64,000 nt of DNA from an uncultured Clostridium sp. (GTDB lineage Bacteria > Bacillota > Clostridia > TANB77 > CAG-508): NCBI GenBank assembly GCA_964370265.1, contig CAYJIP010000004.1, forward strand, positions 13,465 to 77,464, written 5' to 3'. This document shows positions 4,394 to 64,000 of the stretch, piece by piece. The translations under genes were made by a program, and so were the position numbers. How positions within the stretch are numbered: the first letter of the stretch is position 1; every line of letters starts with the position of its first letter. The notes under the pieces were generated by a model. It had not been told where the DNA came from. It saw only the letters and a program-made list of their open reading frames with translations, and searched no databases.

Positions 4394-5896
4394 ATGAAAG
4401 AAACAAGAAAAACAAAGTTAAAACAATCTAATGGTATTACATTAATAAGTCTTGTAATAACAATAATTGTACTTCTAATATTAGCAGGAGTATCAATAGC
4501 AATGTTAACAGGAGAAAATGGAATATTAACACAAGCAACAAATGCAGGAGAAGAAACAGAAGAAAGTACAGCAAAAGAAAAGTTATTAATGGCATTAAAT
4601 GAATATCAAATTCAAAAATACACACCAAATTCTAAAGATATAGTAGAATTTTTAGAAGACCATGTAGATGGATTTGATGTAGAAGGAACTACATCACCAT
4701 ATGATGTCTTTATAGATGGATATATGGGAGAAGTAGAAGAAAACGGAGATTTTGATGAAGACACATTTGGGATAGCTGGACCAAGACCAACTATATCAAA
4801 CATATCAATAACAACAGATGGAACAACAGTACCAACAGACAATTCATTAGAATTAGGAACACCAGTACAAGTAACATTTGATAGTACAATAGAAGGTGGA
4901 ACAATAAAATCAGTAACACCAAGTGTACCATATACAACAAATGGAACAGATATGGAAATAACATTTACAATAGTAGGAACAGTAAATGGAGTAGATTATA
5001 CAAAAAAACAAACAGTAACATTAACAGATAAATATGAAAAACAAGTAGTAGCATTTTCAGAAACAGAAAATGTAGTAATACAAGATGATTTAGGAAATGA
5101 CATAAAAGTACCAGCTGGATTTGGATTAGCAAAAGATTCAGGAAAAGATATAACAGAAGGAATAGTTATAGAAGAAGCTGGAGTACCAGGTGGAGGAAAT
5201 CAATTTGTATGGGTACCAGTTAATGATGTAATTATTGATAGTGCAGGAACAACAAAAAATATACAATTATCAAGATATGAATTCAGCTCAACAGGAGCAG
5301 CAACAATAAAAGGAAATGAAGATATTATAGGATCATACTATAAAGAAACTACAGAAGGAAGAGGAAATGCAGTTGCAACAGACTTAAATGACTTTATAAC
5401 AAAAACAAATCAAGCAGGAGGATATTATATAGCAAGATATGAAGCAAGTAGTAGTGATGGAACTCAAAGCGGAACAGCAGAAAGTAAAGAAAATAAGACA
5501 GGATGGGCAGAAATAACACAACCTAATGCAGCAACAGCCGCAAAAACAATGTATACTAGTAGTTTATATACAACAGACCTTGTTAATTCATTAGCATGGG
5601 ATACAGCACTTGTATATATACAAACAATAAGTACAGATACAAATTATTCAATACAAACAGCAATGGATGACGGATTACAACTTACAGGGAATTCAGGTGA
5701 TGAAATATTGAAAATAAATGATATGGCATCAAATCTAAGAGAATGGAGTACAGAAACTTCCGCTTATTCAGAACATCCGTGTATTCATAGAGGAGGTACT
5801 TATTACAATGATTTTTTTCCTTCTAGCTTCAGATTCTATGACCGTACTAGCCTCAGCCATACCACCTTCTCTTTTCGCCCAATATTATACCTCTAA
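4394..5896 (+). CDS. Prepilin-like N-terminal domain protein (paralog 1) with an FGE-sulfatase/C-type-lectin-like C-terminal domain
   Basis: The N-terminus MKETRKTKLKQSNG|ITLISLVITIIVLLILAGVSIAMLTGENGILTQA has a prepilin-type G|xTLI cleavage motif and a 20-residue hydrophobic helix, but Ser replaces Glu5. The C-terminus carries FGE-family motifs: GYYIARYEAS, SNLREWS, HRGGTY and the terminal FRPIL. The last ~140 bp have atypical C-ending codons. Confidence 0.6.
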   Translation: MKETRKTKLKQSNGITLISLVITIIVLLILAGVSIAMLTGENGILTQATNAGEETEESTAKEKLLMALNEYQIQKYTPNSKDIVEFLEDHVDGFDVEGTTSPYDVFIDGYMGEVEENGDFDEDTFGIAGPRPTISNISITTDGTTVPTDNSLELGTPVQVTFDSTIEGGTIKSVTPSVPYTTNGTDMEITFTIVGTVNGVDYTKKQTVTLTDKYEKQVVAFSETENVVIQDDLGNDIKVPAGFGLAKDSGKDITEGIVIEEAGVPGGGNQFVWVPVNDVIIDSAGTTKNIQLSRYEFSSTGAATIKGNEDIIGSYYKETTEGRGNAVATDLNDFITKTNQAGGYYIARYEASSSDGTQSGTAESKENKTGWAEITQPNAATAAKTMYTSSLYTTDLVNSLAWDTALVYIQTISTDTNYSIQTAMDDGLQLTGNSGDEILKINDMASNLREWSTETSAYSEHPCIHRGGTYYNDFFPSSFRFYDRTSLSHTTFSFRPILYL

Positions 5897-5990
5897 AACT
5901 GAATGCTAAAACCGTGATTTAGAAATAACTAAAGAATAGTTTTGGATAAATAAAAATGAATATTAAAGTGAGTATTTTGAGAATGCTATG

Positions 5991-6095
5991 ATGTATAACA
6001 ATTGTTTAGGAATTTATTTTCCTGTACATTTGGTATACATCTTTTTATTTTGTATAATTGAAGGAGTGAAAAAATAAAGTGAATATAGAATATAT
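5991..6095 (+). repeat. Direct repeat copy B (same terminator/promoter composite as 4065-4167)
   Basis: It has an imperfect hairpin tgtataacaattgt/acatttggtataca, a T-run, TATAAT and AAGGAGTG. The 47 nt at 6049-6095 are identical to copy A. Confidence 0.7.
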
Positions 6096-6153
6096 TTTTA
6101 TTGTGGTAGTTTTTTAGTTATTAATTGGGGTATTAACATAAATTAATCTTTTT

Positions 6154-6182
6154 GTTGTAAATATTGCCAAAATGTAGTATAA
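6154..6182 (+). promoter_or_regulatory. Promoter TTGTAA-17-TATAAT for trpS
   Basis: Consensus hexamers sit 25 nt upstream of the trpS ATG. No T-box leader is present. Confidence 0.4.
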
Positions 6183-6206
6183 TATATAAATGTAAAAAGG
6201 AGGAGA

Positions 6207-11802: not shown

Positions 11803-12810
11803 ATGTTTAAATTTGGTTTTGGGCAAGATATTGGGATTGATTTAGGAACTGCAACAGTAATTGCATATGTAAAAGGAAAAGGTATTGTTTTAAGAGAACC
11901 TTCTGTAGTCGCAGTAGATAATCATACAGGAAATGTACTTGCTGTAGGACAAGAAGCTAGAAGAATGCTTGGAAGAACACCAGGTAATATTGTAGCAACA
12001 AGACCACTTAGAGATGGTGTTATTTCAGACTATACAGTAACTGAAAAAATGCTTAAACATTTTATACATAAAGTAAGTGGAAAGTTTTTATTTGCACCAA
12101 GAATAATGATATGTATACCTTCAAGAGTTACAGAAGTAGAGAAAAAAGCTGTAATTGATGCAGCAATGCAAGCAGGAGCTAGAAAAGTATATTTAATAGA
12201 GGAGCCAATAGCAGCTGCAATAGGAGCAGGAATTGATATTTCAAAACCATGCGGAAATATGGTTGTAGATATAGGTGGAGGAACAACAGATGTTGCAGTC
12301 ATATCTTTAGGAGGATCAGTTGTTAGTGCATCACTTAAAATAGCTGGAGATAAATTTGATGAATATATAGTTAAATATATAAAGAAAAAACACAATGTTA
12401 TGATTGGTGAAAGAACGGCAGAAGATTTGAAAATGAATGTAGGTTGTGTGTATCCTAAAATGCAAGATACACAAATGGAAATAAGGGGAAGAGATTTAAT
12501 AACAGGACTTCCAAAAACATTAACTATACATTCAACAGAAATGTTAGAAGCTTTACTAGAACCAGCTATGATGATTGTTGACTCAGTACATTCAGTATTA
12601 GAAAAAACACCACCAGAATTAGCATCAGATATTAGTGATAGAGGAATATACATGACAGGTGGAGGTTGCTTAATAGATGGTTTAGATAAATTGTTACAAG
12701 AAAAAACAGGTATTAATGTAATGATTGCACAAGATACAGTATCATGTGTAGCATTAGGAACAGGAAAAGCTTTAGATAATCTAGATGCTTTAGAAGGAAA
12801 AACTAGATAA
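11803..12810 (+). CDS. mreB: Rod shape-determining protein MreB
   Basis: Actin-like motifs are present (IGIDLGTATV, DIGGGTTDVAV). A GAAGGAG RBS precedes the start. Confidence 0.9.
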   Translation: MFKFGFGQDIGIDLGTATVIAYVKGKGIVLREPSVVAVDNHTGNVLAVGQEARRMLGRTPGNIVATRPLRDGVISDYTVTEKMLKHFIHKVSGKFLFAPRIMICIPSRVTEVEKKAVIDAAMQAGARKVYLIEEPIAAAIGAGIDISKPCGNMVVDIGGGTTDVAVISLGGSVVSASLKIAGDKFDEYIVKYIKKKHNVMIGERTAEDLKMNVGCVYPKMQDTQMEIRGRDLITGLPKTLTIHSTEMLEALLEPAMMIVDSVHSVLEKTPPELASDISDRGIYMTGGGCLIDGLDKLLQEKTGINVMIAQDTVSCVALGTGKALDNLDALEGKTR

Positions 12811-12956
12811 TATTAAAAGAAGATAATGGACAGTAAAATATCGTATTTGAAATTTTCAATACGATTTTTATATTTGAATGAAAGTAAAAGTGAAAAAATA
12901 AAAGAGTGAAAAATAAAATGAAAATTAAATTAATAAAAAAAGAAGTAAAAGGTGAA

Positions 12957-14258
12957 ATGATGAATAAAAAAGTATCATTTATAACATTAGGTTGTAAAGT
13001 GAATCAATATGAAACAAATGCTATGACTCAGCAATTTATAGATGCGAAATATGAAGTGGTAGAAAATGATGAAAAAGCAGATGTATATGTTGTAAATACA
13101 TGTACTGTAACTAACATGTCAGATAGAAAATCAAGACAAATGCTAAGAAAGGTAAAAGAATTAAATAGAGATTCAGTAGTCGTGGCTTGTGGATGTTATG
13201 CACAAGTAGCAAGAAATGAAGTTGAAGCAATAGAAGAAATCGATTTAGTTCTTGGAAATAACGAGAAAAAAGATATTGTAGAGTATATTGAAAAATATAA
13301 ATTGGATAGACATGTTAAAATAGAAATAGATGATATAATGGAACAAAAAGAATTTTTAGATTTTGGAGAAGTTATATATACTGAAAATACGCGAGCTGTA
13401 ATAAAAGTACAAGATGGATGTGATAGATATTGTTCATATTGTATAATTCCTTATGCAAGAGGAAGAGTAAGAAGTAGAAGACCAGAAAGTGTAATACAAG
13501 AAATAGAAAAAATAGTTAAAACAGGAATTAAAGAAATTGTTATTACAGGAATACATATAGCTTCTTATGGTAAAGATTTTAAAGAAGATTATAAAATTAT
13601 TGATTTATTAGAAGAATTAAATAAAATAAAGGGAATAGAAAGAATAAGATTGGGATCATTAGAGCCTTTATTAATAACAAGAGAATTTTTAGAAAGATTA
13701 ATTAAATTAAATAAAGTATGTAATCATTTTCATCTATCATTACAAAGTGGATGTGATAATACATTAAAGAAAATGAATAGAAGGTATACAACAGAAGAAT
13801 TTAGAAATATAGTAAAACTTTTAAGAGAATACTATTTAGATGTAATGTTAACAACAGATATAATAGTAGGGTTTCCAGGTGAATCTGAAGAGGATTTTAA
13901 TATAACATATGAATTTCTAAAGAAAATTAAATTTTATCAAATGCATGTATTTAAGTATTCACCAAGAAAAGGAACAAAAGCAGCAGAAATGATTAATCAA
14001 ATTGATGGTAATGTAAAAGAAGAAAGAAGCAAAAAACTTTTAGAGTTATCAAATAAAAATCAAAAAGAATATAACGAAGAATTAATAGGTAAAGAATTAG
14101 AGATTTTATTTGAAGAAGAAAAAAATGGTGAATACATTGGTCATACAAATAATTTTATACCAGTACACGTTAAATCAAAAGAAAATTTAAAAAATCAAAT
14201 AGTAAATGTTAAAATTAATAAGATTATAAATTTGAAAATAGAAGCTTACAAAATATAA
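12957..14258 (+). CDS. mtaB: tRNA (N6-threonylcarbamoyladenosine) methylthiotransferase MtaB (MiaB-like radical SAM)
   Basis: It has the MTTase N-domain (VSFITLGCKVNQYE), a radical SAM CxxxCxxC (CDRYCSYC) and a TRAM-like C-terminus. The start is taken at ATG 12957 or 12960 after an AAAAGGTGA RBS. Confidence 0.8.
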   Translation: MMNKKVSFITLGCKVNQYETNAMTQQFIDAKYEVVENDEKADVYVVNTCTVTNMSDRKSRQMLRKVKELNRDSVVVACGCYAQVARNEVEAIEEIDLVLGNNEKKDIVEYIEKYKLDRHVKIEIDDIMEQKEFLDFGEVIYTENTRAVIKVQDGCDRYCSYCIIPYARGRVRSRRPESVIQEIEKIVKTGIKEIVITGIHIASYGKDFKEDYKIIDLLEELNKIKGIERIRLGSLEPLLITREFLERLIKLNKVCNHFHLSLQSGCDNTLKKMNRRYTTEEFRNIVKLLREYYLDVMLTTDIIVGFPGESEEDFNITYEFLKKIKFYQMHVFKYSPRKGTKAAEMINQIDGNVKEERSKKLLELSNKNQKEYNEELIGKELEILFEEEKNGEYIGHTNNFIPVHVKSKENLKNQIVNVKINKIINLKIEAYKI

Positions 14259-14340
14259 GGTATAAATAAGAAAAAAGACTTGTAATTTTATTGTAATACT
14301 ATTGTAATACAAACTTAATATGTAATTATTAGGTAAAATA

Positions 14341-14369
14341 TTGATTTTATATAATTTATGTAGTATAAA
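14341..14369 (+). promoter_or_regulatory. Promoter TTGATT-17-TATAAA
   Basis: Consensus hexamers with a 17-nt spacer lie upstream of the 14407 gene. Confidence 0.4.
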
Positions 14370-14406
14370 ATATATAAAGAGTTAAATTACAAAGGAGGAA
14401 ATTAAC

Positions 14407-14724
14407 ATGGCAGGATTTGAAAATAATAGAAAAGTTGATGGAGTATTCGGTGGAGTTGAAATCGAAAACGTTGTAGCACAAGAAGCTAGTGTAGCAGGAA
14501 ATGCATTTCAAGCTGAAGCAGGACTACCAGTAAAAGCTGGATTCTGGGGAAAATTCAAAGCGTTCTGGTTACAAGAAATTGATTGGAACAAAGAAATCAA
14601 AGTTGAATTAACACCTTATCAACAAAAAGTAGAAGATGAAATTAACGACTTTTTATATCAAGATATAACTTGGGAAAAAGTGAGCAACTTCTTATTTAAA
14701 GAAATTACATTTGGAAAAAAATAA
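14407..14724 (+). CDS. Small hypothetical protein (105 aa) with codon usage typical of highly expressed genes
   Basis: It has a perfect AAAGGAGG RBS and a strong promoter. TTC/ATC/AAC/GAC codons are enriched relative to the genome. No domain was recognised. Confidence 0.5.
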   Translation: MAGFENNRKVDGVFGGVEIENVVAQEASVAGNAFQAEAGLPVKAGFWGKFKAFWLQEIDWNKEIKVELTPYQQKVEDEINDFLYQDITWEKVSNFLFKEITFGKK

Positions 14725-14749
14725 AAATAATTTAAAAATAAATTATATA

Positions 14750-14787
14750 TAATATATTACTTGTAACAAAGTAATATATTTTTTTTA
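14750..14787 (+). terminator. Rho-independent terminator
   Basis: An 11-bp stem atatattactt/aagtaatatat is followed by tttttttt. Confidence 0.6.
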
Positions 14788-14958
14788 TGGGAAATAAATG
14801 AATGTGAAAAATATGTGAACTTTAATTCAAGTATAGAATATGTAACATAAATATGTTATACTTTTTTTACTAAATATAAAGCAATGGAGATAATATAATA
14901 AAGTGATAAAATAATATATAAGAAAAAATATATAATATGAAAAAGAAAGGGAAACATA

Positions 14959-16323
14959 ATGGCTAAAAGTAAAACAGTATTTGTATGTAATGAATGTGGA
15001 AATGAGTCAAGTAAATGGTTGGGAAAATGTCCTGCATGTAATAGTTGGAACAGTTTCTTTGAACAAAAAATAATAGAGAGTAAAAATTCATCTTTAAAAG
15101 AAAAAACATTAGAAAAAATAGTGCCTCAAAAATTAAATACTTATGAAGCTAAAGAAACAATAAGGGTTAAAACTAGTTTTGAGGAATTAGATAGAGTACT
15201 AGGAGGGGGATTTGTTAAAGGATCATTAATACTTTTAGGTGGAGAACCAGGAATAGGTAAATCTACATTAATACTTCAAATATGTGACAAGATAAATGGA
15301 GAAGGAAATGTATTATATGTTTCGGGAGAAGAGTCTGCAGAACAGATTAAGATGAGAGCAGATAGATTAAATATTAATAATGAAGGAATCCTATTTTTAG
15401 GTGAAACAGATATAGATATAGTTAATCAAGCTATAATAAATGAAAAGCCTAAATTAGTAATTATAGATTCTATACAAACAATGTATTCAGAAGAATTGAC
15501 AGCAGCTGCTGGAAGTGTAAGTCAAGTAAGAGAAATAACATCACAAATAATGAAAGTATCTAAATCTAGAGGGATAACAACAATAATAATAGGGCATGTG
15601 ACCAAAGAGGGGAATATAGCAGGACCTAGAGTGTTAGAACATATGGTAGATACAGTACTATACTTAGAAGGAGAAAGATATTTTTCATATAGAATATTAA
15701 GAGGTGTGAAGAATAGATTTGGATCAACAAATGAAATTGGAATGTTTGAGATGAAAGAAGAAGGTATGTGTGAAATTACAAACCCTTCTGAAATATTAAT
15801 TTCAGAAAGAGAAGATAATCCTTCGGGATCCTGTATTGTTTCAGCGTTAGAAGGAACAAGACCCATGTTAATTGAAGTACAAGCATTAACATCTCAAACA
15901 GTATATCCTGTACCTAAAAGAACTGCTAATGGAATAGATTACAATAGACTATCATTGTTAGTTGCAGTTTTAGAAAAAAAAGCAGGACTAATGGTAGGTA
16001 TGTGTGATATATACATGAATATTGTTGGTGGAATAAAAATAAATGAACCATCGATAGATTTAGGAATAATTGCAGCAGTAGCATCGAGTTTTAAAAATGT
16101 GCCATTACCAAAGGATATGATAATAATAGGTGAAGTAGGTCTTACAGGTGAGGTTAGAAGAATAAACCAAATCGAAAAAAGATTAAAAGAAGCGGAAAAA
16201 TTAGGATTTAAATCATGTATAATTCCAGAAAGTAACAAAAAAGACTTGAAAGATAGGTATAAATTGGATATAATGTATGTTAGAAATATAAGGGAAGCTA
16301 TGCAAAAGATGAATATAAAGTAA
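14959..16323 (+). CDS. radA: DNA repair protein RadA (Sms)
   Basis: It has an N-terminal zinc ribbon (CNECGNESSKWLGKCPACNSWNS), a RecA-like P-loop GEPGIGKST, the KNRFG motif and a Lon-like C-terminus. Confidence 0.95.
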   Translation: MAKSKTVFVCNECGNESSKWLGKCPACNSWNSFFEQKIIESKNSSLKEKTLEKIVPQKLNTYEAKETIRVKTSFEELDRVLGGGFVKGSLILLGGEPGIGKSTLILQICDKINGEGNVLYVSGEESAEQIKMRADRLNINNEGILFLGETDIDIVNQAIINEKPKLVIIDSIQTMYSEELTAAAGSVSQVREITSQIMKVSKSRGITTIIIGHVTKEGNIAGPRVLEHMVDTVLYLEGERYFSYRILRGVKNRFGSTNEIGMFEMKEEGMCEITNPSEILISEREDNPSGSCIVSALEGTRPMLIEVQALTSQTVYPVPKRTANGIDYNRLSLLVAVLEKKAGLMVGMCDIYMNIVGGIKINEPSIDLGIIAAVASSFKNVPLPKDMIIIGEVGLTGEVRRINQIEKRLKEAEKLGFKSCIIPESNKKDLKDRYKLDIMYVRNIREAMQKMNIK

Positions 16324-16343
16324 TAGTTGAAAGGAGAATAATT

Positions 16344-17423
16344 TTGAAAAAAGAAAAAGAAGAAAATTTATCAAAAATATTGAAATTAATCGCTCCAGGA
16401 ACACCTATTAGAGACGGACTTGAAAATATATTAAGAGCAAAAACAGGTGCATTACTACTTATTTCTGATAATCCAGAAATATTAGAAGAAGTAGTAGATG
16501 GTGGTTTTTATATCAATGAAGACTATAGTTCATCAAAATTGTATGAGCTTGCAAAAATGGATGGTGCAATAGTACTAAGTAGTGATTTTAAAAAAATTTT
16601 ATATGCAAATGCACAATTAATACCATCAAATTCGGTATATACATTAGAAACAGGGACAAGACATAGAACAGCAGAAAGAACAGCAAAACAAACTGGTGAA
16701 TTGGTTATAAGTATATCTCAAAGAAGAAGTATTATAACAATATTTAAAGGTTTAGAAAGATATATTTTAGAAGATACGGGTGTTGTATTAAGTCAAGCTA
16801 ACCAAGCGATACAAACATTAGAAAGATATAAAAAAGTATTTGATAATAAATTAAGTATATTAAATGAATATGAATTTAATGATATAGTAACATTGAAAAA
16901 TGTATTAACATCTATTCAAAGAGCTGAAATGGTTATGAGAATTGCAGAAGAGATACAAAGACAAATATATGAACTTGGAAATGATGGAAGACTTGTTGAA
17001 ATGCAATTAGAAGAATTAATTGGAGATTTAGAAACAGAAGAATTATTAATTATAAAAGATTATATGGTACCGATTAAAAAAAGAAGAACAGCAGAAAAAA
17101 TTCATCAAGATTTAAATTTATTAACATATGATGAATTACTAAAAGAAACATCAATAGCAAGATTATTAGGTTATGAAACGTTTGATAACTATGATGAAGT
17201 AGCTGTGTATACTAAAGGGTATCGTATATTAAATAAAGTACCTAGAATGCCATCAAATATAGTGGACAATCTAGTAGATGCATTTAAATCATTCCAACAC
17301 ATATTAGCTGCTGATATAGAATCATTGGATGATGTCGATGGAATAGGTGAAGTTAGAGCTAAATCAATAAAACAATCGTTAAAAAGAATGCAAGAGCAAT
17401 TTGTTTTTGATAATATATTTTAA
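16344..17423 (+). CDS. disA: DNA integrity scanning protein DisA (diadenylate cyclase)
   Basis: The DAC domain motif reads DGAIVLSSD...TGTRHRTAERTAKQT, with a C-terminal HhH. It is coupled to radA. A TTG start follows an AAGGAGA RBS. Confidence 0.9.
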   Translation: MKKEKEENLSKILKLIAPGTPIRDGLENILRAKTGALLLISDNPEILEEVVDGGFYINEDYSSSKLYELAKMDGAIVLSSDFKKILYANAQLIPSNSVYTLETGTRHRTAERTAKQTGELVISISQRRSIITIFKGLERYILEDTGVVLSQANQAIQTLERYKKVFDNKLSILNEYEFNDIVTLKNVLTSIQRAEMVMRIAEEIQRQIYELGNDGRLVEMQLEELIGDLETEELLIIKDYMVPIKKRRTAEKIHQDLNLLTYDELLKETSIARLLGYETFDNYDEVAVYTKGYRILNKVPRMPSNIVDNLVDAFKSFQHILAADIESLDDVDGIGEVRAKSIKQSLKRMQEQFVFDNIF

Positions 17424-17458
17424 TTAACAGATAGAGAAAAAAGAGAAAGAGGAAGAAA

Positions 17459-18253
17459 ATGAGAGATACAAAGAATTTTTTATGGATAATAGGATTAATA
17501 GTAGTTATAGCTTTATTAGGAACAGTAATATTTGGATATTACAAAAATATAACAATGGAAATAAAAAATCCAGTAGTAACAATGGAAATAGCAGATTATG
17601 GAACAGTAAAAATTGAACTTTATCCAGAAATAGCACCAGAGACAGTGAATAATTTTATAAATTTAATAAATCAAGGATATTATGACGGATTAACATTTCA
17701 TAGAGTTGTAAATGATTTTATGATTCAAGGTGGAGATTCAGCAGGTGACGGAACAGGTGGAGTAACTATAGGTGATATCACAGGGACACAAGATGAGACT
17801 CTATATTCAATAAAAGGTGAGTTTATTGCTAATGGAGACGACAACAACCTTAAATTTGAAGAAGGTGTCATAGGTATGGCAAGAAGTGATTATTCACAAA
17901 CTTCATCTGATTTAGTTGATGAATCATATAATTCAGCAGGTTCGCAATTCTTTATTGTTACAGGAGAAGCAACTTCATTAAATGGTTATTATACATCATT
18001 TGGTAAAGTGGTAGAAGGAATGGATATTATAAATAAAATTGAAGCTGTAGAAACAAAAGTTGCAGATGATGCAGAAGAAACGGGTAGTACAGAACAAAGT
18101 ATACCAGTAACACCAGTAACTATTACTAAAATGACAGTAGATACATTTGGATATACTTATGAATTACCAGAATTATTAGAAGCTTTTGATTATATGACAT
18201 GGTTATATATGCAATACGGATTAGATCCAAGTACAATGATGGTAACAGAATAG
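17459..18253 (+). CDS. Peptidyl-prolyl cis-trans isomerase, cyclophilin-type, membrane-anchored
   Basis: An N-terminal TM helix precedes a cyclophilin core (YYDGLTFHRVVNDFMIQGGD). Confidence 0.85.
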   Translation: MRDTKNFLWIIGLIVVIALLGTVIFGYYKNITMEIKNPVVTMEIADYGTVKIELYPEIAPETVNNFINLINQGYYDGLTFHRVVNDFMIQGGDSAGDGTGGVTIGDITGTQDETLYSIKGEFIANGDDNNLKFEEGVIGMARSDYSQTSSDLVDESYNSAGSQFFIVTGEATSLNGYYTSFGKVVEGMDIINKIEAVETKVADDAEETGSTEQSIPVTPVTITKMTVDTFGYTYELPELLEAFDYMTWLYMQYGLDPSTMMVTE

Positions 18254-18339
18254 AAGAAGTTGATTAAAAAAATATGAGAGTAAAAGAACAATTTTGTACT
18301 TTTACTTTCTAAATTTATTAAAAAAATATTGTAAAATTA

Positions 18340-18368
18340 TTGACAAAAAACAATTAATAATGTAAAAT
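18340..18368 (+). promoter_or_regulatory. Promoter TTGACA-17-TAAAAT for the tRNA pair
   Basis: Consensus hexamers lie about 30 nt upstream of tRNA-His. Confidence 0.45.
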
Positions 18369-18400
18369 ATTAAATGTGCTTAAGAAATGAGGTACAAAAT

Positions 18401-18477
18401 GGTGGATGTAGTGAAGTGGTTATCACGCCAGTTTGTGGCACTGGAGATCGTGGGTTCAATTCCCATCTTCCACCCCA
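18401..18477 (+). tRNA. tRNA-His (GUG) with G-1 and encoded CCA
   Basis: The cloverleaf was folded by hand. The anticodon loop is ttGTGgc. It has the extra 5' G (G-1), a discriminator C and a T-loop ttcaatt. There is one U-U mismatch in the acceptor stem. Confidence 0.8.
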
Positions 18478-18491
18478 TTTTAATTATATAT

Positions 18492-18566
18492 TGGGCTGTA
18501 GCCAAGCGGTAAGGCACCAGACTTTGACTCTGGCATTCGTGTGTTCGAATCTCACCAGCCCAGCCA
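18492..18566 (+). tRNA. tRNA-Gln (UUG) with encoded CCA
   Basis: The acceptor pairs tgggctg/cagccca. The D-arm gcc/ggc is Gln-like. The anticodon loop is ctTTGac. The T-loop is ttcgaat. Confidence 0.8.
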
Positions 18567-18572
18567 AGAAAA

Positions 18573-18611
18573 ATAGCGACTTTCAAGAAAATGAAAGAAG
18601 CTATTTTTTTA
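18573..18611 (+). terminator. Rho-independent terminator after the tRNAs
   Basis: The hairpin atagc..ctttc/gaaag..gctat is followed by ttttttt. Confidence 0.55.
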
Positions 18612-18683
18612 TTAGTATAGTTATTGCACTTTTATAAAATAGTGATATAATAGAAAAAAATGAAAGAAAATTAATGGTGCGTT

Positions 18684-19253
18684 ATGAATACAGAAAAAAT
18701 AAAGAATGCTAATACAAGAAGAATTGGAAAAGAAATAGAATATTATAAAGAAATAGATTCAACAAGTATATATGCTAAAAAAATAGCAATGAATGAAAAT
18801 AATGGTAAAATAATAATAGCAGAAGTACAGACAAATGGAATTGGAACAAAAGGTAGAAAATGGTATACAGGTAGTGAGAAAAATATAGCTATGACTATAA
18901 TATTAAAACCAACTTGTAAAATATCAGAATTAGATAATTTAACAATAAGAATAGCTGAAATAATTAAAGAATCTGTAGAAGAATTATATGGATATAAGTT
19001 AAATATTAAAATTCCAAATGATTTATTATTAAATAATAAAAAAATTGCAGGAATATTAACAGAAGTCAGTACTATTGGTGAAAAAATAAATTATTTATTA
19101 ATTGGGGTAGGGTTTAATGTTAATGAAGACTGTTTTTCAAAAGAAACAATAGACATAGCAACTTCACTAAAAAAAGAATATAATAAAGAATTTTCAAGAG
19201 AAGATATAATTATTAGAATAATTGAAAAGATAGAAAAAGAAATAGAAAAATAG
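18684..19253 (+). CDS. Biotin--protein ligase catalytic domain protein (BirA-like, no HTH)
   Basis: It has BPL motifs (EIDSTS, GIGTKGRKW). It is only 189 aa and lacks an N-terminal DNA-binding domain. Confidence 0.65.
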   Translation: MNTEKIKNANTRRIGKEIEYYKEIDSTSIYAKKIAMNENNGKIIIAEVQTNGIGTKGRKWYTGSEKNIAMTIILKPTCKISELDNLTIRIAEIIKESVEELYGYKLNIKIPNDLLLNNKKIAGILTEVSTIGEKINYLLIGVGFNVNEDCFSKETIDIATSLKKEYNKEFSREDIIIRIIEKIEKEIEK

Positions 19254-19324
19254 TTCTATTTCTTTTTTTGTGTAATAAAATTGAGATATATAATAAGGAT
19301 TAAATAAAGGGGGATAGATTATAG

Positions 19325-19717
19325 ATGAAAGAAAAGATTAAAGAAGAGCCAACAGTTATTAAAAATATATTTAAAGGTGTTGCTATTTCATTTGTATTCA
19401 CAATGGTATGTTTAGTGATATTTGCAACAATATTAACAAATACAGATGTTCCAGAGTCGACAATTCCAACTATAATAACAATAGTGACAATAATTAGTAT
19501 ATTAATAGGTAGTTCAATTAGTAATTTTAAAATAAGAAGAAATGGAATAATAAATGGGGGATTAGTCGGTTGTATATATTTGATTATTATATATACATTA
19601 TCAGGTATATTAACAGGTGAGTTTGGATTAAATGTTAATAGTATGATTACAATAGTGCTAGCAATTCTTTTTGGAATAATTGGTGGAATAATAGGGGTTA
19701 ATAAGAAAATAAAATAA
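19325..19717 (+). CDS. Small four-TM membrane protein (possibly TIGR04086-like)
   Basis: Four hydrophobic helices with glycine-rich packing motifs follow an AAGGGGGA RBS. Confidence 0.45.
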   Translation: MKEKIKEEPTVIKNIFKGVAISFVFTMVCLVIFATILTNTDVPESTIPTIITIVTIISILIGSSISNFKIRRNGIINGGLVGCIYLIIIYTLSGILTGEFGLNVNSMITIVLAILFGIIGGIIGVNKKIK

Positions 19718-19718
19718 A

Positions 19719-20477
19719 TTATATCAAAGAAGTAATGTTAATTTGTAGATTTGTAGAATTGTTTGAAATATCATATAGATCTAAAGATAATGAGATATTA
19801 TTGTAGAACTCTTTTTCGAATCTTGTGTAATCATCATTTGATGTCCATCCATTTATAGGTTGTAAAGGTTCATTTGAAATAAGAGTTCCTGTTAAACTGT
19901 TTGGATTAGATTGTTTTTCAATAAATATTACATTAGGTGAGATGTTATCAACAATAATATTTGTTGATAACGAAGTATAATTATTAAAATTATTATGGCT
20001 ATCTGAAACTATGTTGTCATCAATCGATATTGATAGTATTCCATTATTAGATATGTTTGAAATTGCTATATTGTATTTTTTACCAGAATCAAATTCTTCA
20101 ATTATTTTGAAATCTAATATTTCAAAATATGTAGATCTATTATTAAGAAATAATTTAATATTACTTTCATTAAAATTATTTAAGTTAATATTGTTTTCGT
20201 ATAATGTTACATCAAATTTAAGAATATGATTTGAATTTATATTAAAAATATTTGATTCGTCATTGATATGAATATTATTAATAGAAAAGTACGGTTTTTT
20301 AGTATCTAAATTTATATTAAATATATTGTAAGATAAATATTCTTGATATTTAGCAGCAGATATATTAGGTATACAAGTTATATTGAAAAATATTAGTAAT
20401 ATAGATAATGTGGAAAATGATAATAAAAGTAATAATAGTTTAGTTATTACTTTTTCTTTTTTTATTACTTTAGCCAT
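19719..20477 (-). CDS. Hypothetical secreted Asn/Ile/Ser-rich protein
   Basis: A signal-peptide-like N-terminus (KLLLLLLSFSTLSILLIFF) precedes a low-complexity N-rich sequence. No domain was recognised. It converges on the 19325 gene with a 1-nt gap between the stops. Confidence 0.4.
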   Translation of the reverse strand: MAKVIKKEKVITKLLLLLLSFSTLSILLIFFNITCIPNISAAKYQEYLSYNIFNINLDTKKPYFSINNIHINDESNIFNINSNHILKFDVTLYENNINLNNFNESNIKLFLNNRSTYFEILDFKIIEEFDSGKKYNIAISNISNNGILSISIDDNIVSDSHNNFNNYTSLSTNIIVDNISPNVIFIEKQSNPNSLTGTLISNEPLQPINGWTSNDDYTRFEKEFYNNISLSLDLYDISNNSTNLQINITSLI

Positions 20478-20697
20478 GTCTTGTGTTGAATAACCTCCTT
20501 AGTGATATATTAAAATAAGTATTAAATATTTTTATTTGTTAGTGGTAGTATAATATATTTATTCTGTCGAAAAAACGAAAAATTTGCGGTGAAAAGTAAT
20601 TGACAAATTATGGAAAAGAAAATATAATTCAGTCATTACATATTTATTCAAAATTTGTAAGAAATTTATTCTAAAATAGTTTTTAACTTATTAAACT

Positions 20698-20751
20698 AAT
20701 TTCAATCAAAAAATTTCAATCAAAAATTTCAATCAAAAGATTCAATTAAAA
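20698..20751. repeat. Tandem repeat, four copies of a 13-14 bp unit (atttcaatcaaaa)
   Basis: It was read directly in the intergenic region upstream of the 20848 gene. Confidence 0.7.
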
Positions 20752-20847
20752 AGATTTAATTCTAAGAAGTAATTTCTAAAGTTTCCTATAATAAAACGAG
20801 AGAGGAGGTTATATTTTACGATAAATAGTATCAAAAATATAATTTGT

Positions 20848-21339
20848 TTGATTTCTTTACTTGGATTAACAATACTTATATTGAAACAGAATCCTGATAC
20901 TGTAAAAAGTATTAAAATATTCCCATGGGATTTTGAAGATAATTCAATATACAAAGAAGCATATTTAATTAAATGTGAAAATATGTACCCTGGTATGATT
21001 AATGAATTTCAGATAATTATTAAAAATGAATGGACTACCCCGAACATTCAATACAATATAGAAATTATTAATAACACACAAAAACCTAAAAACATATACT
21101 ATATATTTGAAGAAGAAAAATATAGTGATATAAACAATTTGAAAGATGTTATACTTGAAGCTATATATAATAATGAGAATATAGAAGAAAGTATATATAC
21201 AATAAAAATTGCGTGGGATTTTGAAACAGGTGAAAATGAAGAAGAGATTAAAGAAAACAATGTAATTGATACAAATGATATGAAAGAATTATCAAGCTAC
21301 TCCTTTATGATAATTTTATCAGCCCATAAACTTGTATAA
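20848..21339 (+). CDS. Hypothetical protein; the annotated TTG start is doubtful
   Basis: A strong AGAGGAGG RBS at 20801-20808 is 40 nt upstream of the TTG. The frame stays open back to the RBS and encodes a signal-like INSIKNIICLISLLGLTILIL, but no canonical start codon is present there. Confidence 0.4.
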   Translation: MISLLGLTILILKQNPDTVKSIKIFPWDFEDNSIYKEAYLIKCENMYPGMINEFQIIIKNEWTTPNIQYNIEIINNTQKPKNIYYIFEEEKYSDINNLKDVILEAIYNNENIEESIYTIKIAWDFETGENEEEIKENNVIDTNDMKELSSYSFMIILSAHKLV

Positions 21340-21414
21340 AATCTAAAATTAATTTATTTCTTTGAAAAGAATAAATATGTAATAAAGTCCGTCAAGGTTA
21401 ATATTTTTATTTGA

Positions 21415-21445
21415 AGTTAGGAATTTTAATTCCTAACTTTTATTA
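21415..21445 (+). terminator. Rho-independent terminator (near-perfect palindrome aagttaggaatt/aattcctaactt + T-rich tail)
   Basis: The palindrome lies directly downstream of the 20848 gene. Confidence 0.5.
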
Positions 21446-21566
21446 ATTATAAAAGAGGAGTATAAGAATATAAAAGTATAAAAGTATAAAACATAAAGTA
21501 TAAAAATGTAAAATGCAAAATTATAGAAAGGCTAAATATAATAAATACTTATAAAGGAAAATAGAT

Positions 21567-22112
21567 TTGAAAAAAACAAATAATAGTGAAAAAATATATA
21601 ATAATCAAAAAATTAAAAAGAGGAAAAAAATGATAACAAAAATAATATGTATAATTATTCTTTTATTTAGTATAGTTACATGTATTATTATAGGAAAGCA
21701 TATATATAATATGATGCTATATGGAAAAGATGAAAATGAGATTATTGTTGAAACAAATATTTTAAAACCGATATATGTAATAGAAGCACAAGAAGTGGTA
21801 GAAGTGGTTGGTGATGAGGAATATAAATATATAATGAATATTAAAAATTATAATGAAAATGAAGTCAATCAGCTTGAATCTAAATGTAAATTAAGAATAG
21901 TATCAAATGAAGAATATAATCATGAATTTAGTATATATGTAAATGATAGTAGAGTAGAGTTAGAAAATAGTTGGATAAAAGATATAATTATTACAAGAAA
22001 TGAAAAACAGGATATAAAGATAGAAATATTATTAAAATTGGATAGTTCGCTAATAAATACGGAAATAGAATTATTTGACATTATTAGCATGGAAGTTGTA
22101 GTAGAACAATAG
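21567..22112 (+). CDS. Hypothetical membrane-anchored protein
   Basis: Either TTG 21567 or ATG 21630 could be the start; both have an RBS. A single N-terminal TM helix is followed by an E/K/N-rich domain. No domain was recognised. Confidence 0.4.
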   Translation: MKKTNNSEKIYNNQKIKKRKKMITKIICIIILLFSIVTCIIIGKHIYNMMLYGKDENEIIVETNILKPIYVIEAQEVVEVVGDEEYKYIMNIKNYNENEVNQLESKCKLRIVSNEEYNHEFSIYVNDSRVELENSWIKDIIITRNEKQDIKIEILLKLDSSLINTEIELFDIISMEVVVEQ

Positions 22113-22200
22113 TTGTTTATAAAAATAAATATAAAATATATTGACTGTATAGATAAAAAAATATAAAATGTAAAATGAAAGAAAAAAGAATGGAGAAAAA

Positions 22201-23040
22201 ATGACACTAATATATGTAATAATTCTAGCAGGATTAATGAGTGCAATAGGACAATATGTGGATAAGCATTTAGTGAATAAAGGAATAACACGAAAAGATT
22301 ATTTCTATTATATGTGTTTTTCAATGATACCATATGCAATATTTATGATTATTGTAGAATATATGACAGGACAACTTAAATTTACTACGGGAATAATTCC
22401 TATAATATTAATAATGTTAGCAATGTTTTTTAGATATAAGAAGCAACATACAGTTGTTGGATGTTTAACACATTTAAATCCATATGAAGACACAGCATAT
22501 TTAACTTTAGGTATTGTATTAGCATATGGGATTGATATTTTAATTGGTGCTGAATCAGCAAGTGTATTAGAAATTATATCAATAATACTAATAATTATAG
22601 GTGTATTTATTATTGCGGATTCTAAAGTGAAAATGAAAAATTTGCAAAAAGATATACTTATACGAATACTAACAACATTAATAATAGGATATATTACATA
22701 TTACTCATTACAATATATGTCTAATGCAATTTTTCTATTGATAGTCAATTTAGGTTTAACTTTAATTTTTTCTAGAGGATACAAAATAAAATATCATATT
22801 GAAAATAAAAATATAATTAAATGGGTGTTTATCCAACAATTATTTGGTTTTATATATTTATATGCTAGCAATTATTTAAATAGTAATTCTGTAACACTAA
22901 GTTCATATGTAAAACCCATGTCAATTATATGTGTAGTAGTTATATCGTTATTTTTGAAAGAAAAAGAGAAAAAACCTAAAGTACATCAAATAATCGGTGT
23001 TTTAATAATGATTGCAGGAATAAGTTTAATAAATGTTTAG
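22201..23040 (+). CDS. Multi-TM membrane protein, DMT/EamA-like transporter
   Basis: There are about ten TM segments with two-fold internal repeat character. The C-terminal GVLIMIAGISLI is typical of EamA. Confidence 0.45.
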   Translation: MTLIYVIILAGLMSAIGQYVDKHLVNKGITRKDYFYYMCFSMIPYAIFMIIVEYMTGQLKFTTGIIPIILIMLAMFFRYKKQHTVVGCLTHLNPYEDTAYLTLGIVLAYGIDILIGAESASVLEIISIILIIIGVFIIADSKVKMKNLQKDILIRILTTLIIGYITYYSLQYMSNAIFLLIVNLGLTLIFSRGYKIKYHIENKNIIKWVFIQQLFGFIYLYASNYLNSNSVTLSSYVKPMSIICVVVISLFLKEKEKKPKVHQIIGVLIMIAGISLINV

Positions 23041-26064: not shown

Positions 26065-27237
26065 ATGAAAATAAAAGGGAATAAAGGTATAACATTAATT
26101 AGTTTAGTAATAACAATTATTGTACTATTAATATTAGCAGGAATAAGTATAGCTATGCTAACAGGAGAAAGTGGAATATTAACACAAGCAGATAAAGCAA
26201 CAGAAGCAACAAGAGGTGGAGATGTTGATGAAACTTTAAGAATGTGGGAATATAGTACAGAATTAGAAAAATATACGGATAGAAATGATGAAATATCTTT
26301 AAGTGAACAATTAGATGAATTAGTAGCAAAAGGGAAATTAACACCAGAAGAGAGAGTAGAATTAGAAGCTAATAAAAAAGTAGAGATAGGTGGAATTTTG
26401 GTAAGATTACCAAATGTTGAAGAAAATGATGGTAATGATAAGATATATTTAGGTGACCTTCCAGAGGGAACAAAAGTTATGTATAATAATATAGAATGGG
26501 CTATTTTATATGATGGCGAAAATGGTGATCCATTTACAAATAAAGTTGAATTAGTATCAACAGATGCACTGGATGAAATTAATTTGGATAGTAATACATA
26601 TACTACGGAAGAATTGAAAAACAATTATAGAAAAGCTATCGAAATTCTAAATGGTTCAGTTCAACAATATAATTTAGGAGATGCTTTAAGTGTAAGGCAT
26701 GTTGGTACAGATCCAACAAATCCAAATGCATATGCAATGATAGGTGAACAATACGTTGATTATTATGATATACCGGACGATATGGTTTTTGAACGTGACA
26801 CGAATGAAAATGGTTATATATATAGATATGGAGAATTAAATAGTGCTAATTTTGTAGGATTGGAGCAAATAGTACAAAATCATCATGAAACAGATATTAA
26901 TAAATTAAAAACAATAGATGTAGATGGTGAAAATATGTATGATATTGATGGACAATCATATTTTCTAGGAAGCAGAACAGCTACAGTGCAATACGGGAAA
27001 ATGGTATATAGTTCAGGTCAGGAAGAAGTAAGTACTGATTTGAGATATTTCTGTTTGAGATATAAATATGAAAATGATGAAGAACTTAGAAATGTAACTA
27101 TTGCAACATATGGAAAAGCATCAGCGTCAGTGAGTGGAAGACCAGGTACACCAATGTTAAGGCCAGTAATTGCGTTTTCACCAGATAAAGAAGTTGAATT
27201 AGATACAGTAAATGCAGATACATATATATTTAAATAA
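26065..27237 (+). CDS. Prepilin-like N-terminal domain protein (paralog 2)
   Basis: The N-terminus MKIKGNKG|ITLISLVITIIVLLILAGISIAMLTGESGILTQA is near-identical to paralogs 1 and 3. The C-terminal 340 aa are unrelated. It starts 49 nt downstream of the SecF-like gene. Confidence 0.6.
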   Translation: MKIKGNKGITLISLVITIIVLLILAGISIAMLTGESGILTQADKATEATRGGDVDETLRMWEYSTELEKYTDRNDEISLSEQLDELVAKGKLTPEERVELEANKKVEIGGILVRLPNVEENDGNDKIYLGDLPEGTKVMYNNIEWAILYDGENGDPFTNKVELVSTDALDEINLDSNTYTTEELKNNYRKAIEILNGSVQQYNLGDALSVRHVGTDPTNPNAYAMIGEQYVDYYDIPDDMVFERDTNENGYIYRYGELNSANFVGLEQIVQNHHETDINKLKTIDVDGENMYDIDGQSYFLGSRTATVQYGKMVYSSGQEEVSTDLRYFCLRYKYENDEELRNVTIATYGKASASVSGRPGTPMLRPVIAFSPDKEVELDTVNADTYIFK

Positions 27238-62311: not shown

Positions 62312-62359
62312 ATTTTAGTATATTTAATCATATACAGTTTAATCATAGTCTACTTAATC

Positions 62360-63034
62360 TTATTTCCTTTTTCCGAAAATAGATAAAATTCGTATAAAAA
62401 TATTAATAAAATCTAAATATAATTGCATAGCACAATATATGTGTATTTTTTCAGAATCAAGATTAGGATCTTGAGATAACAATTTGATTTTATTTAAATC
62501 ATAAACTGTTATTCCGAAAAATACAAGTAAAATAAACCAATCAACACCTAATGATAATGCAGAACTATTAAAGATAAAAATATTTAATAAAGACATTATT
62601 AATCCGGCAATTAAAAATAAAGTTAAATATGGACCGAATTTACTTAAATTGATTTTTGTTGTATATCCTATAAATCCTAATATTGCAAATATTAAAGCAG
62701 AAATACCAAAAATGTATACAATTGAAGATAATTCAAATATATAGAAAATTGTTGCTAAAGTAACACCATTTATCATAGCATAAACAAAATATAATATACC
62801 AACAGCCATTGGTGGTAATTTTCTAAATAGAAATGAAAATAGTAAAACAATAGCTAATTCAGCAACTAATAAAATTGGGAAATAATCATTGTTTAATATT
62901 GTTGATAATAAATCAGTTGAATATGTGTACCATGCGATAATACCAGAACCAAGTAAGCCTAAAAACATCCAAAAAAATGTTTTTCCAAGTATCTTATTTG
63001 GTTCATTAGTAGTAATAACTTCTTCTTCAAACAT
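62360..63034 (-). CDS. Bax inhibitor-1/YccA family membrane protein
   Basis: It has seven TMs with BI-1-like spacing and a charged C-terminal tail (GKRK). Confidence 0.65.
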   Translation of the reverse strand: MFEEEVITTNEPNKILGKTFFWMFLGLLGSGIIAWYTYSTDLLSTILNNDYFPILLVAELAIVLLFSFLFRKLPPMAVGILYFVYAMINGVTLATIFYIFELSSIVYIFGISALIFAILGFIGYTTKINLSKFGPYLTLFLIAGLIMSLLNIFIFNSSALSLGVDWFILLVFFGITVYDLNKIKLLSQDPNLDSEKIHIYCAMQLYLDFINIFIRILSIFGKRK

Positions 63035-63229
63035 AAAATGCTCCCTTCATAAAATTTAATGTTAGTATAACATAATATTAAGAGATTTACCAATTAATAT
63101 TTTTATAAAACAATAAAACATTAAATTATAAAATAAGCATAAAAATATTAATATTTATAGATAATTTATGTTTTTTGTGAAATAATATAATAGAATAAAT
63201 TATTCAGAAAAATATACTAAAATGAGTGA

Positions 63230-63258
63230 TTGTAAATTAATTATTAATGTGTTAAAAT
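63230..63258 (+). promoter_or_regulatory. Promoter TTGTAA-17-TAAAAT upstream of pilin-like paralog 3
   Basis: Consensus hexamers lie about 90 nt upstream of ATG 63347. Confidence 0.4.
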
Positions 63259-63346
63259 TTGGATAGTAGTAATGAAAATACACATAAGAAGAAAGGGGTA
63301 TATGATAATTAAATATTAATTTAATATACTTATCATAAAGAGTGGA

Positions 63347-64000
63347 ATGGCAAATAAAATAGAGAAAATAGACAATAAAAAAATATATGTAGAAAGTATA
63401 AATAATCAAGGGATTACATTAATTTCAGTTGTAATAACAATAATTGTATTATTAATTTTGACATCTGTTTCAATTGCATTGCTTTTAGGAGAAACGGGAA
63501 TTTTAAATCAGGCAAACAAAGCTAAAATTATATCAGAATTTTCATCATATGAGGAAGCTATGAAATTAGTAGAAGCAGATGATGTTATGAATGATTTAAT
63601 AGAAGGAAAGAAACAAACATCTTTAAGATATAATATATATAGTGGACAAGAGTTAGCAAAAATATTACCCAATGTAGAACAAGAGATAATGGATAGAATA
63701 ATGTATATTGATGGAGAAATGATATATATTGCAGATGAAATAAATCAAGATGTAATTGAGATTGAAAATGCCGGATATCAAATAATCTTAAAAGAAGACG
63801 TTAACTATAGAATAGAATTAGAGATGATAGAAAATTTAGTAGAATTAACAAACATATATGGATATGAGCAAATAGGAAAGCAAATAGAAACAATATATTA
63901 TCCAAATAGTGTATATGTAGGTTTAAATAAATTTGGAGCAGGATGGAATATACTTGGTAATGGTGATACAAGTAGTGAAAATACAAATATAATAAAAGAA
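63347..64000 (+). CDS. Prepilin-like N-terminal domain protein (paralog 3; 3' partial, runs off the window)
   Basis: It reads MANKIEKIDNKKIYVESINNQG|ITLISVVITIIVLLILTSVSIALLLGETGILNQA. No stop occurs through 64000 (218 codons). It is not in the ORF track because it is open-ended. Confidence 0.55.
   Translation, partial: MANKIEKIDNKKIYVESINNQGITLISVVITIIVLLILTSVSIALLLGETGILNQANKAKIISEFSSYEEAMKLVEADDVMNDLIEGKKQTSLRYNIYSGQELAKILPNVEQEIMDRIMYIDGEMIYIADEINQDVIEIENAGYQIILKEDVNYRIELEMIENLVELTNIYGYEQIGKQIETIYYPNSVYVGLNKFGAGWNILGNGDTSSENTNIIKE

Follow-up and report, generated by a model that had tools for sequence, protein, structure and literature searches.

The question raised by this stretch of DNA is what kind of protein joins the N-terminus of a type IV pilin, devoid of the glutamate at position +5 (Glu5), to a C-terminal domain that changes from gene to gene. 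The stretch, called the window here, was the 64 kb of contig CAYJIP010000004.1 of an uncultured Clostridium sp. and had a G+C content of 26.4%. It was found to contain three such genes, named copies 1, 2 and 3. Our answer, to which we give a probability of about 60%, is that the three genes encode modular type IV pilins, i.e., an N-terminal pilin module with an extra domain that is not pilus-specific, and that they belong to a clade-specific, Glu5-less pilin class. The three open reading frames (ORFs) were as follows.

4394..5896, plus strand: copy 1, encoding a 500-aa modular pilin-like protein identical to database protein P0253.
26065..27237, plus strand: copy 2, encoding a 390-aa modular pilin-like protein identical to database protein P0122.
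63347..64000, plus strand: copy 3, encoding the first 218 aa of a 514-aa modular pilin-like protein; the ORF runs past the window end.

The 218 aa of copy 3 were identical to the N-terminus of database protein P0123 (514 aa). A six-frame motif scan found exactly three copies of the module in the window. The original prediction, made from the letters of the window, had named three ORFs with a common Ser5 N-terminus, and these were confirmed at the above positions. Each began with a basic leader whose last residue was Gly; then came ITLIS[LV]VITIIVLLIL[AT][GS][VI]SIA[ML]L[TL]GE[NST]GIL[TN]QA. Copies 1 and 2 were 52% identical over 95 aa (BLASTP, E=5e-21) and copies 2 and 3 were 56% identical over 57 aa (E=4e-16). 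No significant similarity among the copies was found by pairwise BLASTP downstream of the shared N-terminal part. The description of the proteins as essentially unrelated downstream was therefore right for the more distal parts but not for the segment directly after the helix, where copies 1 and 2 were similar to about residue 95-100. The DNA of the shared segment contained many synonymous differences among the copies (the Ser5 codons were AGT, AGT and TCA), and the upstream DNA of the three copies was unrelated. Selection on the protein therefore accounts for the conservation, and recent gene conversion was ruled out on the same two grounds.

The predicted leaders of the three proteins were found at the following positions.

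4394..4435, plus strand: leader peptide of copy 1, aa 1-14, MKETRKTKLKQSNG, with predicted prepilin-peptidase cleavage after Gly14.
Ending at 26086-26088, plus strand: leader of copy 2, aa 1-8, with Gly8 as its last residue.
Ending at 63410-63412, plus strand: leader of copy 3, aa 1-22, with Gly22 as its last residue.

Directly after the predicted cleavage site stood the hydrophobic stretch ITLISLVITIIVLLILAGVSIAML, with a helix at aa 12/17-39 in the AlphaFold2 models. The leader ending in Gly/Ala and the ~20-25 mainly hydrophobic residues after it are those of a class III signal peptide (IPR012902, PF07963), and the motif would place cleavage after the Gly. Among 303 non-redundant relatives, the leader had a median length of 10.5 aa and a net charge of +3, position -1 was Gly in 299 and Ala in 4, and position +1 was Ile in 302 and Val in 1. 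A profile of 28 N-termini was searched against all PDB chain sequences (E<=10). It matched five sequences, all of them type IV pilins (Geobacter PilA-N, MshA, PilA, Streptococcus sanguinis PilE1), of which Geobacter PilA-N was the best (E=0.002), and the alignments were in register from the leader Gly at -1. The type-IV-pilin-like character claimed for the N-terminus was thus upheld.

Glu5 is frequent in type IV pilins but not obligatory, and in the studied pili it pairs with the neighbouring subunit's N-terminal amine (PMC10191384). In our study, the +5 residue was Ser in all three window proteins, and among the 303 relatives it was Ala in 283, Ser in 19 and Thr in 1, with no Glu or Asp. The reported absence of Glu5 was correct, whereas the statement that the residue is invariably Ser was not. 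Ser5 is a local variant, peculiar to this genome, of an Ala5 family.

The same N-terminus was found to head pilin genes in the type IV pilus clusters of relatives. In L017, L050, L056 and L060, which are loci of four metagenome-assembled genomes (MAGs), short module proteins of 125-169 aa with Ala5 were the pilin genes of a complete cluster of this type. The order in L017 and L060 began with a PilM/N-like fusion, a PilO-like gene, a small membrane protein, 1-3 tandem pilins and a PilD-like gene, followed by an Asp5 pilin (FTGID after the Gly), a Ser5 pilin (ITLIS after the Gly), PilB, PilT and PilC. What was seen of the cluster in L050 and L056 was limited to the short module pilin, with two T2SSE ATPases ~3.4 and 4.6 kb downstream of it. 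Pfam identified PilN, A24_N_bact, T2SSE+MshEN, T2SSE and T2SSF in the L017 cluster. The clusters were located by the Asp-box motif GE[IM]RD; the Walker A motif of the clade PilB was APTGEGKT, and the canonical GPTGSGK[ST] matched nothing in 1.2 Mb. An archaeal-type or Tad-type system was ruled out, as the cluster consists of PilB/PilT/PilC/PilMN.

A metagenome scan with the L017 PilB as query added 80 further loci with 67-85% identity, whose named sources were human gut metagenome assemblies. All 42 loci with at least 3.3 kb of upstream sequence contained 1-3 short module pilins upstream of pilB, and no canonical GFTLIE pilin was found in any pilus-cluster locus of the scan. The short operon pilins ranged from 63 to 192 aa, counted from the Gly, with a median of 131. 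Long module proteins (253 to >=655 aa) were found 6.5-10.5 kb from pilB on six contigs; therefore, the machinery and the modular versions coexist in the same genomes. The L017 operon pilin was 62% identical to copy 1 over 68 aa, with a single difference (Ala/Ser5) in the first 36 mature residues. The original prediction had excluded a family of pilus fibre subunits, and this view is contradicted by the 42 of 42 informative loci in which the same N-terminus heads tandem pilin genes. Of its proposal of an anchoring module on variable cargo, the variable cargo remains; the module is not an orphan tag, since it is the N-terminus of the operon pilins. One candidate near a pilus cluster, at L126 19720-20730, contained an FGE domain like that of copy 1 and was set aside, as it was without the module N-terminus and was probably truncated or chimeric.

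Two kinds of pilin in these clusters differed in their conservation. Across ten loci the Asp5 pilin showed a median identity of 98.5%, whereas the Ala5 pilin was 46% identical overall, with a median of only 25% beyond residue 45. We favour the Ala5 pilin as the putative major subunit: its alpha1-N is conserved and its head hypervariable, and it is often present in tandem copies, as expected of a major pilin that is exposed. From the same comparison, the Asp5 protein would behave like a core minor pilin. This Asp5 pilin occurred as a single conserved gene after the PilD-like gene (L017 12190-12618, L060 11978-12403, and most of L092-L171) and was the only pilin of these clusters with an acidic +5 residue; the position was Glu in L126 and Ser in L115. 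In eleven loci (L145, L147, L148, L150, L152, L155, L157, L158, L163, L165 and L169), the Ala5 pilin, ~2.0-2.1 kb upstream of pilB, had only 63-72 residues from the Gly and was essentially alpha1 alone. In this they recall Geobacter PilA-N, itself truncated and the best match among the PDB sequences.

The genes related to prepilin processing in the relatives were of two kinds.

L088 10001-10753; L090 10001-10753; L063 3522-4269: 250-aa peptidase-only A24 enzyme.
L017 11363-12178; L060 11135-11947: PilD-like gene of the pilus cluster, with only the A24_N domain (zinc-binding, methyltransferase-associated).

The 250-aa enzyme was present in a conserved housekeeping block (RuvC, holA, SleB-like, YqeG-like, A24, PepP, EF-P). 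It contained PF01478 only, with an intact GFGDVK motif, and no A24_N domain was detected by Pfam even at E<=1. It was 80-86% identical among at least 120 database clusters listed, some of which were named 'prepilin peptidase [Clostridia bacterium]'. The distance from a module gene to this gene was 5.3 kb in L090 and ~6 kb in L063. The PilD-like gene had no peptidase domain detectable by Pfam, and its second catalytic Asp motif was degenerate (YVDGILL in L017, YVIGILL in L060). From the domain content, this clade seems to have divided the bifunctional PilD between two genes.

The predicted fold of the module was examined in copy 1.

4436..4774, plus strand: pilin module of copy 1, with alpha1-N at aa 15-39, the GENG hinge at 40-43, a helix at 44-74, a helix at 83-89 and four strands at 95-127.

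The AlphaFold2 model of full copy 1 had a mean predicted local distance difference test score (pLDDT) of 83, and that of its first 132 residues had a pLDDT of 79.5. Both models contained the helix at 12/17-39, the break at GENG 40-43, the helix at 44-74, a short helix and the strands at 95-127, so that the predicted shared fold element is ~127 aa long, with two helices and a 4-stranded sheet. The N-terminal ~120 aa of copy 2 aligned to this module, and copy 3 shared only the first ~57 aa. Foldseek gave nothing significant for the pilin module of copy 1; the closest structural match was GspK (PDB 3ci0), over the generic pilin core only, with the GspK alpha-domain not covered. The models suggest a small pilin-like head of ~110 aa in copy 1, extended to copy 2 by alignment, and are supportive but not decisive.

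Downstream of the module, the following domains were found in copy 1.

4787..5020, plus strand: beta-rich spacer domain of copy 1, aa 132-209, all-beta in the AlphaFold2 model with a pLDDT of ~87-96.
5072..5893, plus strand: FGE-sulfatase / C-type-lectin-like (CLec) domain of copy 1, aa 227-500, from Foldseek and from PF03781 in relatives.

The strand pattern of the modelled spacer may be Ig-like. For aa 227-500 of copy 1, the best Foldseek matches were 2y3c TvpA (the best), 5aoh CarF, 5hha PvdO, PorK and 1y4j pFGE; their E-values were weak (4.5e-3 and above), and their probabilities lay between 0.9 and 1.0. Copy 1 itself did not match PF03781 at E<=1, and its homologues did. Together these results agree with the FGE/C-type-lectin-like domain first proposed for copy 1. 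The full-length protein of copy 3 (P0123) contained a LamG/ConA-like lectin domain at aa 367-493, beyond the window end (PF13385, E=4e-8, 33.9 bits against a cut-off of 27.6), so that copy 3, described earlier as without a recognised fold, has one. No Pfam or NCBIfam domain was found in the C-terminal part of copy 2. The module is thus fused to different cargo domains, as had been stated, and copy 1 (FGE/CLec-like) and copy 3 (Laminin_G_3) both combine an N-terminal pilin module with a domain that is not pilus-specific.

In a sample of 97 relatives, the cargo regions were clustered after removal of the module and formed clusters of 58, 24, 7 and smaller. The cargo of copy 1 fell in the largest cluster, whereas copies 2 and 3 were singletons. 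The Pfam census of the 97 proteins contained FGE-sulfatase in 15, GLUG in 15, Laminin_G_3 in 4 and BspA-type leucine-rich repeats (LRR_5) in 2, and also PKD. A different putative ligand-binding domain is present in each of the three window proteins, and the family is therefore best described as a hugely expanded variant of the 'modular pilin'.

The expansion was evident from database searches. When a database of 5.8 billion proteins was searched with a profile of the three N-termini, at least 6,890 proteins matched, with 8,000 candidates scored. Among 1.84 billion cluster representatives (50% identity), searched exhaustively, 28,171 matched at E<=0.001 and 12,281 at E<=1e-10. At least 120 homologues of copy 1 were listed, with 40-100% identity, and no match listed for the module or for copy 1 carried a name. 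The best 80 matches in GTDB contigs, with one genome per species, were all from uncultured Clostridia or Clostridium MAGs, and where the titles state a source these were human, rabbit and mouse gut samples. The G+C content of the fetched loci was 23-31%. The MAG CALXEW01 accounted for 16 of the fetched loci and contained at least 21 module genes, counted as non-overlapping ORFs. A fourth paralogue of the window genome, P0254, was 81% identical to copy 1 and lies outside the window, presumably on the same contig.

Module genes often occurred in tandem arrays of 3-5 close paralogues (L071 2227-8846, L079 1084-8601, L017 10025-11276 and L170 6806-8650), which suggests recent local duplication; in the L071 array the 3' ends were 89-95% identical. 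In the protein P0121 (706 aa), one complete unit of module and cargo was followed by another, whose module occupied aa 390-443; either two adjacent genes were fused by read-through or the ORF was miscalled. The surroundings of the short top-scoring matches L001-L003 and L082 were housekeeping genes. In L001 (10001-11302) and L003 (5919-8066) very short top-scoring ORFs of 65-121 aa were followed by a gap and a further ORF, with transposase genes adjacent in L003; such ORFs may be disrupted or frameshifted module genes. Two IMG/VR contigs (L083/L084, 8022-9197) encoded a 391-aa protein with a related N-terminus (GITLVALVVTIVVLLILTG..., 47% identity). It was located between the endolysin and the integrase of a temperate phage, a typical spot for lysogenic-conversion cargo.

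TvpA, the best structural match of copy 1, is the variable protein of a diversity-generating retroelement (DGR), and for this reason the 3' ends of module genes were searched for repeats. Pairs of a variable region and a template repeat (VR/TR) were found in three loci. Their mismatches fell at template adenines in 21 of 22 cases in L078 (9992-15455), 24 of 25 in L035 (9977-13403) and 32 of 36 in L080 (9992-13438). In all three, Avd-like and reverse-transcriptase (RT) ORFs adjoined the pairs, as judged from size, position and the RT motif, with no family search. The DGR RT of L078 (12337-15219) was apparently split by an inserted ORF with a YADD motif (13553-14797), which resembles the reverse transcriptase/maturase of a group II intron. 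In the window, a template repeat was found for neither copy 1 nor copy 2, and no RT-like gene was recognised by eye among window ORFs of at least 120 aa (no RT motif or Pfam scan). Copy 1 thus has the CLec/FGE fold of a DGR variable protein within the window, with neither template repeat nor RT found there. Copy 1 and P0254 were almost identical over aa 121-300, and their differences were concentrated in aa 301-345 and in the last ~40 residues, where most positions differed. The last ~40 aa of copy 1 (5774-5893) are the segment that forms the DGR variable region in relatives. This distribution is suggestive only; DGR mutagenesis, in the past or acting in trans, may have left it. No publication combining DGRs with type IV pilins was found in a literature search.

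These observations can be joined in a mechanism. The prepilins would be inserted by Sec with the leader in the cytoplasm, and an A24 prepilin peptidase would cut after the Gly, the 250-aa peptidase-only enzyme conserved in the clade being the candidate. The alpha1-N would hold the cleaved proteins in the membrane, from which the pilus machinery would extract the modular pilins and co-polymerise them with the Ala5 major pilin. Co-polymerisation would be possible because the modular pilins share the alpha1-N packing surface of the Ala5 pilin. The pilus would then display the lectin and adhesin modules, with its tip or the region close to it as the most plausible site. The dozens of paralogues in a genome would form a repertoire of alternative adhesive specificities, to which DGRs would add variation in some relatives. 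Cleavage after the Gly, extraction, co-assembly with the Ala5 pilin, tip display and the repertoire function are the steps that we infer. The near-invariance of ~45 residues despite unrelated cargo is what packing together in the core of a filament would call for, and an anchor in the membrane would have no need of it. More tentatively, and with somewhat more doubt than belief, we extend the proposal to the clade as a whole, a widespread one of uncultured, low-GC gut Clostridia. It would build its type IV pili from Glu5-less major pilins and would use the pilin N-terminal module as an all-purpose platform for display. Each genome would have at least 20 scattered modular pilins carrying lectins or adhesins, of which some are DGR-hypermutated and some prophage-borne.

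Several results weigh against modular pilins. The pilus cluster and the prepilin peptidase were seen in relatives only, and of the organism's own genome 64 kb were covered. Glu5, the subunit-packing contact in studied pili, is absent from the window proteins, a cargo of 300-450 aa cannot be accommodated at every position of a filament, and the module genes are scattered among housekeeping genes rather than placed in a pil locus. The hidden Markov model searches that had been suggested gave a divided result. In Pfam, N_methyl (PF07963) scored only 12.8, 14.3 and 13.9 bits in the window proteins against a cut-off of 21.2, and NCBIfam, including TIGR02532, gave no match for them. N_methyl did match 40 of 97 relatives at E<0.01, with P0121 (21.7 bits) as the sole relative reaching the Pfam cut-off and the L017 operon pilin at 20.9 bits. 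A rival reading is that of pilin-anchored surface proteins, in which the class III signal is cleaved by the A24 peptidase, the alpha1-N serves as a membrane tether and the lectins are exposed with no polymerisation, so that they would function much as archaeal bindosome proteins do. Scattered and apparently independently transcribed genes, their large number (at least 21 in one MAG), their bulky cargo, the missing Glu5 and an orphan peptidase that sits in a housekeeping block and not in a pilus locus would all be expected of such proteins. A plain anchor, however, needs neither ~45 residues that stay near-identical to the operon pilin despite synonymous divergence nor a conserved pilin-like head domain, and a tether of ~100 residues may not carry a lectin through the thick monoderm wall to the surface. 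We therefore consider this explanation unlikely, while giving it real weight.

Another possibility is that the Asp5 pilin is the fibre subunit and that the Ala5/Ser5 proteins, short or long, are GspK/PilK-like caps that start filaments, each pilus then carrying one of many interchangeable tips. It was retained because the subunit that caps known tip complexes has no Glu5 (PMC10191384). GspK was the best structural match, and in the clusters no pilin but the Asp5 one had an acidic residue at +5. However, the Ala5 pilins occur in 1-3 tandem copies with heads that are 25% identical, against 98.5% for the Asp5 pilin, and the match to GspK covered the generic pilin core without the alpha-domain, so that we give this arrangement a low probability. 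An ordinary uncleaved signal-anchor, i.e., a type II membrane protein with a coincidental likeness to prepilins, would explain the sub-threshold Pfam scores, the lack of an NCBIfam model and the lack of a Foldseek pilin match. It is strongly disfavoured and very improbable, as pilin genes begin with the same sequence in all 42 pilus clusters, the PDB matches are exclusively pilins and position -1 is limited to Gly/Ala. An assembly or annotation artefact, with misjoined fragments of one gene family, had been raised as a caveat and is refuted. The ORFs of copies 1 and 2 are complete, the flanks are distinct, synonymous differences separate the copies, identical proteins exist on an independent record, and thousands of full-length relatives are known.

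Streptococcus sanguinis modular pilins are encoded in the pil locus, two per genome. In the present family, unlike in that species, the genes are scattered and some are DGR targets; one genome has at least 21 of them, and the metagenome clusters number more than 12,000. The S. sanguinis proteins are PilB, with a vWA module, and PilC, with a ConA-like lectin module (Raynaud et al. 2021, PMC8179133; PMC9934059). Copy 3 resembles PilC in carrying a lectin of the same ConA/LamG superfamily (PMC8179133), and the host is likewise a monoderm of the Firmicutes. S. sanguinis PilB has Glu5 (PMC8179133), whereas the module proteins studied here have Ala or Ser at +5. The known tip complexes are capped by a subunit lacking Glu5, of the GspK/PilK type (PMC10191384). 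GspK differs in its alpha-domain inserted in the sheet, in being single-copy and in its partners GspI and GspJ; no such insertion or partners were seen here, and, unlike in GspK systems, the presumed major pilin is also without Glu5.

In archaea, class III signal-peptide proteins (pilins, archaellins and the Sulfolobus bindosome) have no Glu5 requirement. The module family is similar in placing a class III signal on diverse extracellular domains, and the orphan 250-aa A24 enzyme of the clade is similar to the archaeal peptidase without a methyltransferase domain. Unlike in archaea, the cluster is a bacterial one of PilB/PilT/PilC/PilMN, and the alpha1-N aligns with bacterial pilins (TLI.LV motif). 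An analogy with the archaeal bindosome is less apt than one with bacterial modular pilins (PMC8179133).

The C-terminal domain of copy 1 is like Treponema denticola TvpA (PDB 2y3c), and three relatives have adenine-specific VR/TR pairs. TvpA and Mtd of the Bordetella phage are DGR variable proteins with a C-type-lectin/FGE fold. TvpA is a lipoprotein and Mtd forms the tail-fibre tip, whereas the carrier here is a pilin module and no template repeat or RT was recognised in the window. The tip adhesins of Bacteroides type V pili are diversified by DGRs (bioRxiv 10.1101/2024.11.15.621889), and the two cases are alike in that gut bacteria hypermutate an adhesive pilus component. They differ in that the Bacteroides pili are of the type V class with sortase-like strand exchange and belong to another phylum (bioRxiv 10.1101/2024.11.15.621889); that report is silent on type IV pili, Clostridia and prepilins. 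Each of the three ingredients, modular pilins, Glu5-less tip pilins and DGR-targeted CLec proteins, is already known. Our literature search found no bacterial pilus cluster whose presumed major pilins lack an acidic +5 residue, and no expansion to dozens of scattered modular pilins per genome. A search with module peptide strings returned nothing, and one on class III signal peptides of Firmicutes yielded nothing beyond general papers on type IV pili.

The neighbours of the three genes in the window were housekeeping genes (TrpRS, Obg, SecDF-like, MutL, PrkC and others), as read from the ORF translations with no family search. No PilB-, PilC- or PilD-type gene was present in the window, and a motif scan found neither a PilB/PilT Asp-box nor an A24 peptidase motif, in agreement with the earlier remark that pilus machinery is missing from it. 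In a scan of this AT-rich DNA, promoter-like sites were no commoner than in shuffled sequence and only one to three terminator-like sites were found. Small ORFs of 252 aa (minus strand) and of 163 and 181 aa (plus strand) were located at 19719-22112, between the BirA-like and membrane-protein genes. At least two of them had hydrophobic N-termini, and the ORFs were unrelated to the pilin module.

Cultured models treat Glu5 as a key assembly residue and modular pilins as rare, locus-encoded minor subunits. The three window proteins and most of the tested relatives escape current pilin models (TIGR02532, and PF07963 at threshold). The presumed major pilins without an acidic +5 residue offer a test, provided by nature, of whether a bacterial filament can do without the Glu5 salt bridge. 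If the more tentative proposal for the whole clade is true, the pilus of these bacteria would be a programmable, hypervariable adhesive organelle, and the need for the salt bridge between Glu5 and the N-terminus would be challenged. The DGR link would extend the targeted hypermutation of pilus adhesins from Bacteroides type V pili to type IV pilins. The scale of the family, with at least 21 genes in one genome and ~12,000-28,000 clusters, would make pilin-borne lectins a major unannotated surface class of gut Clostridia, with relevance to mucus, glycan and host adhesion.

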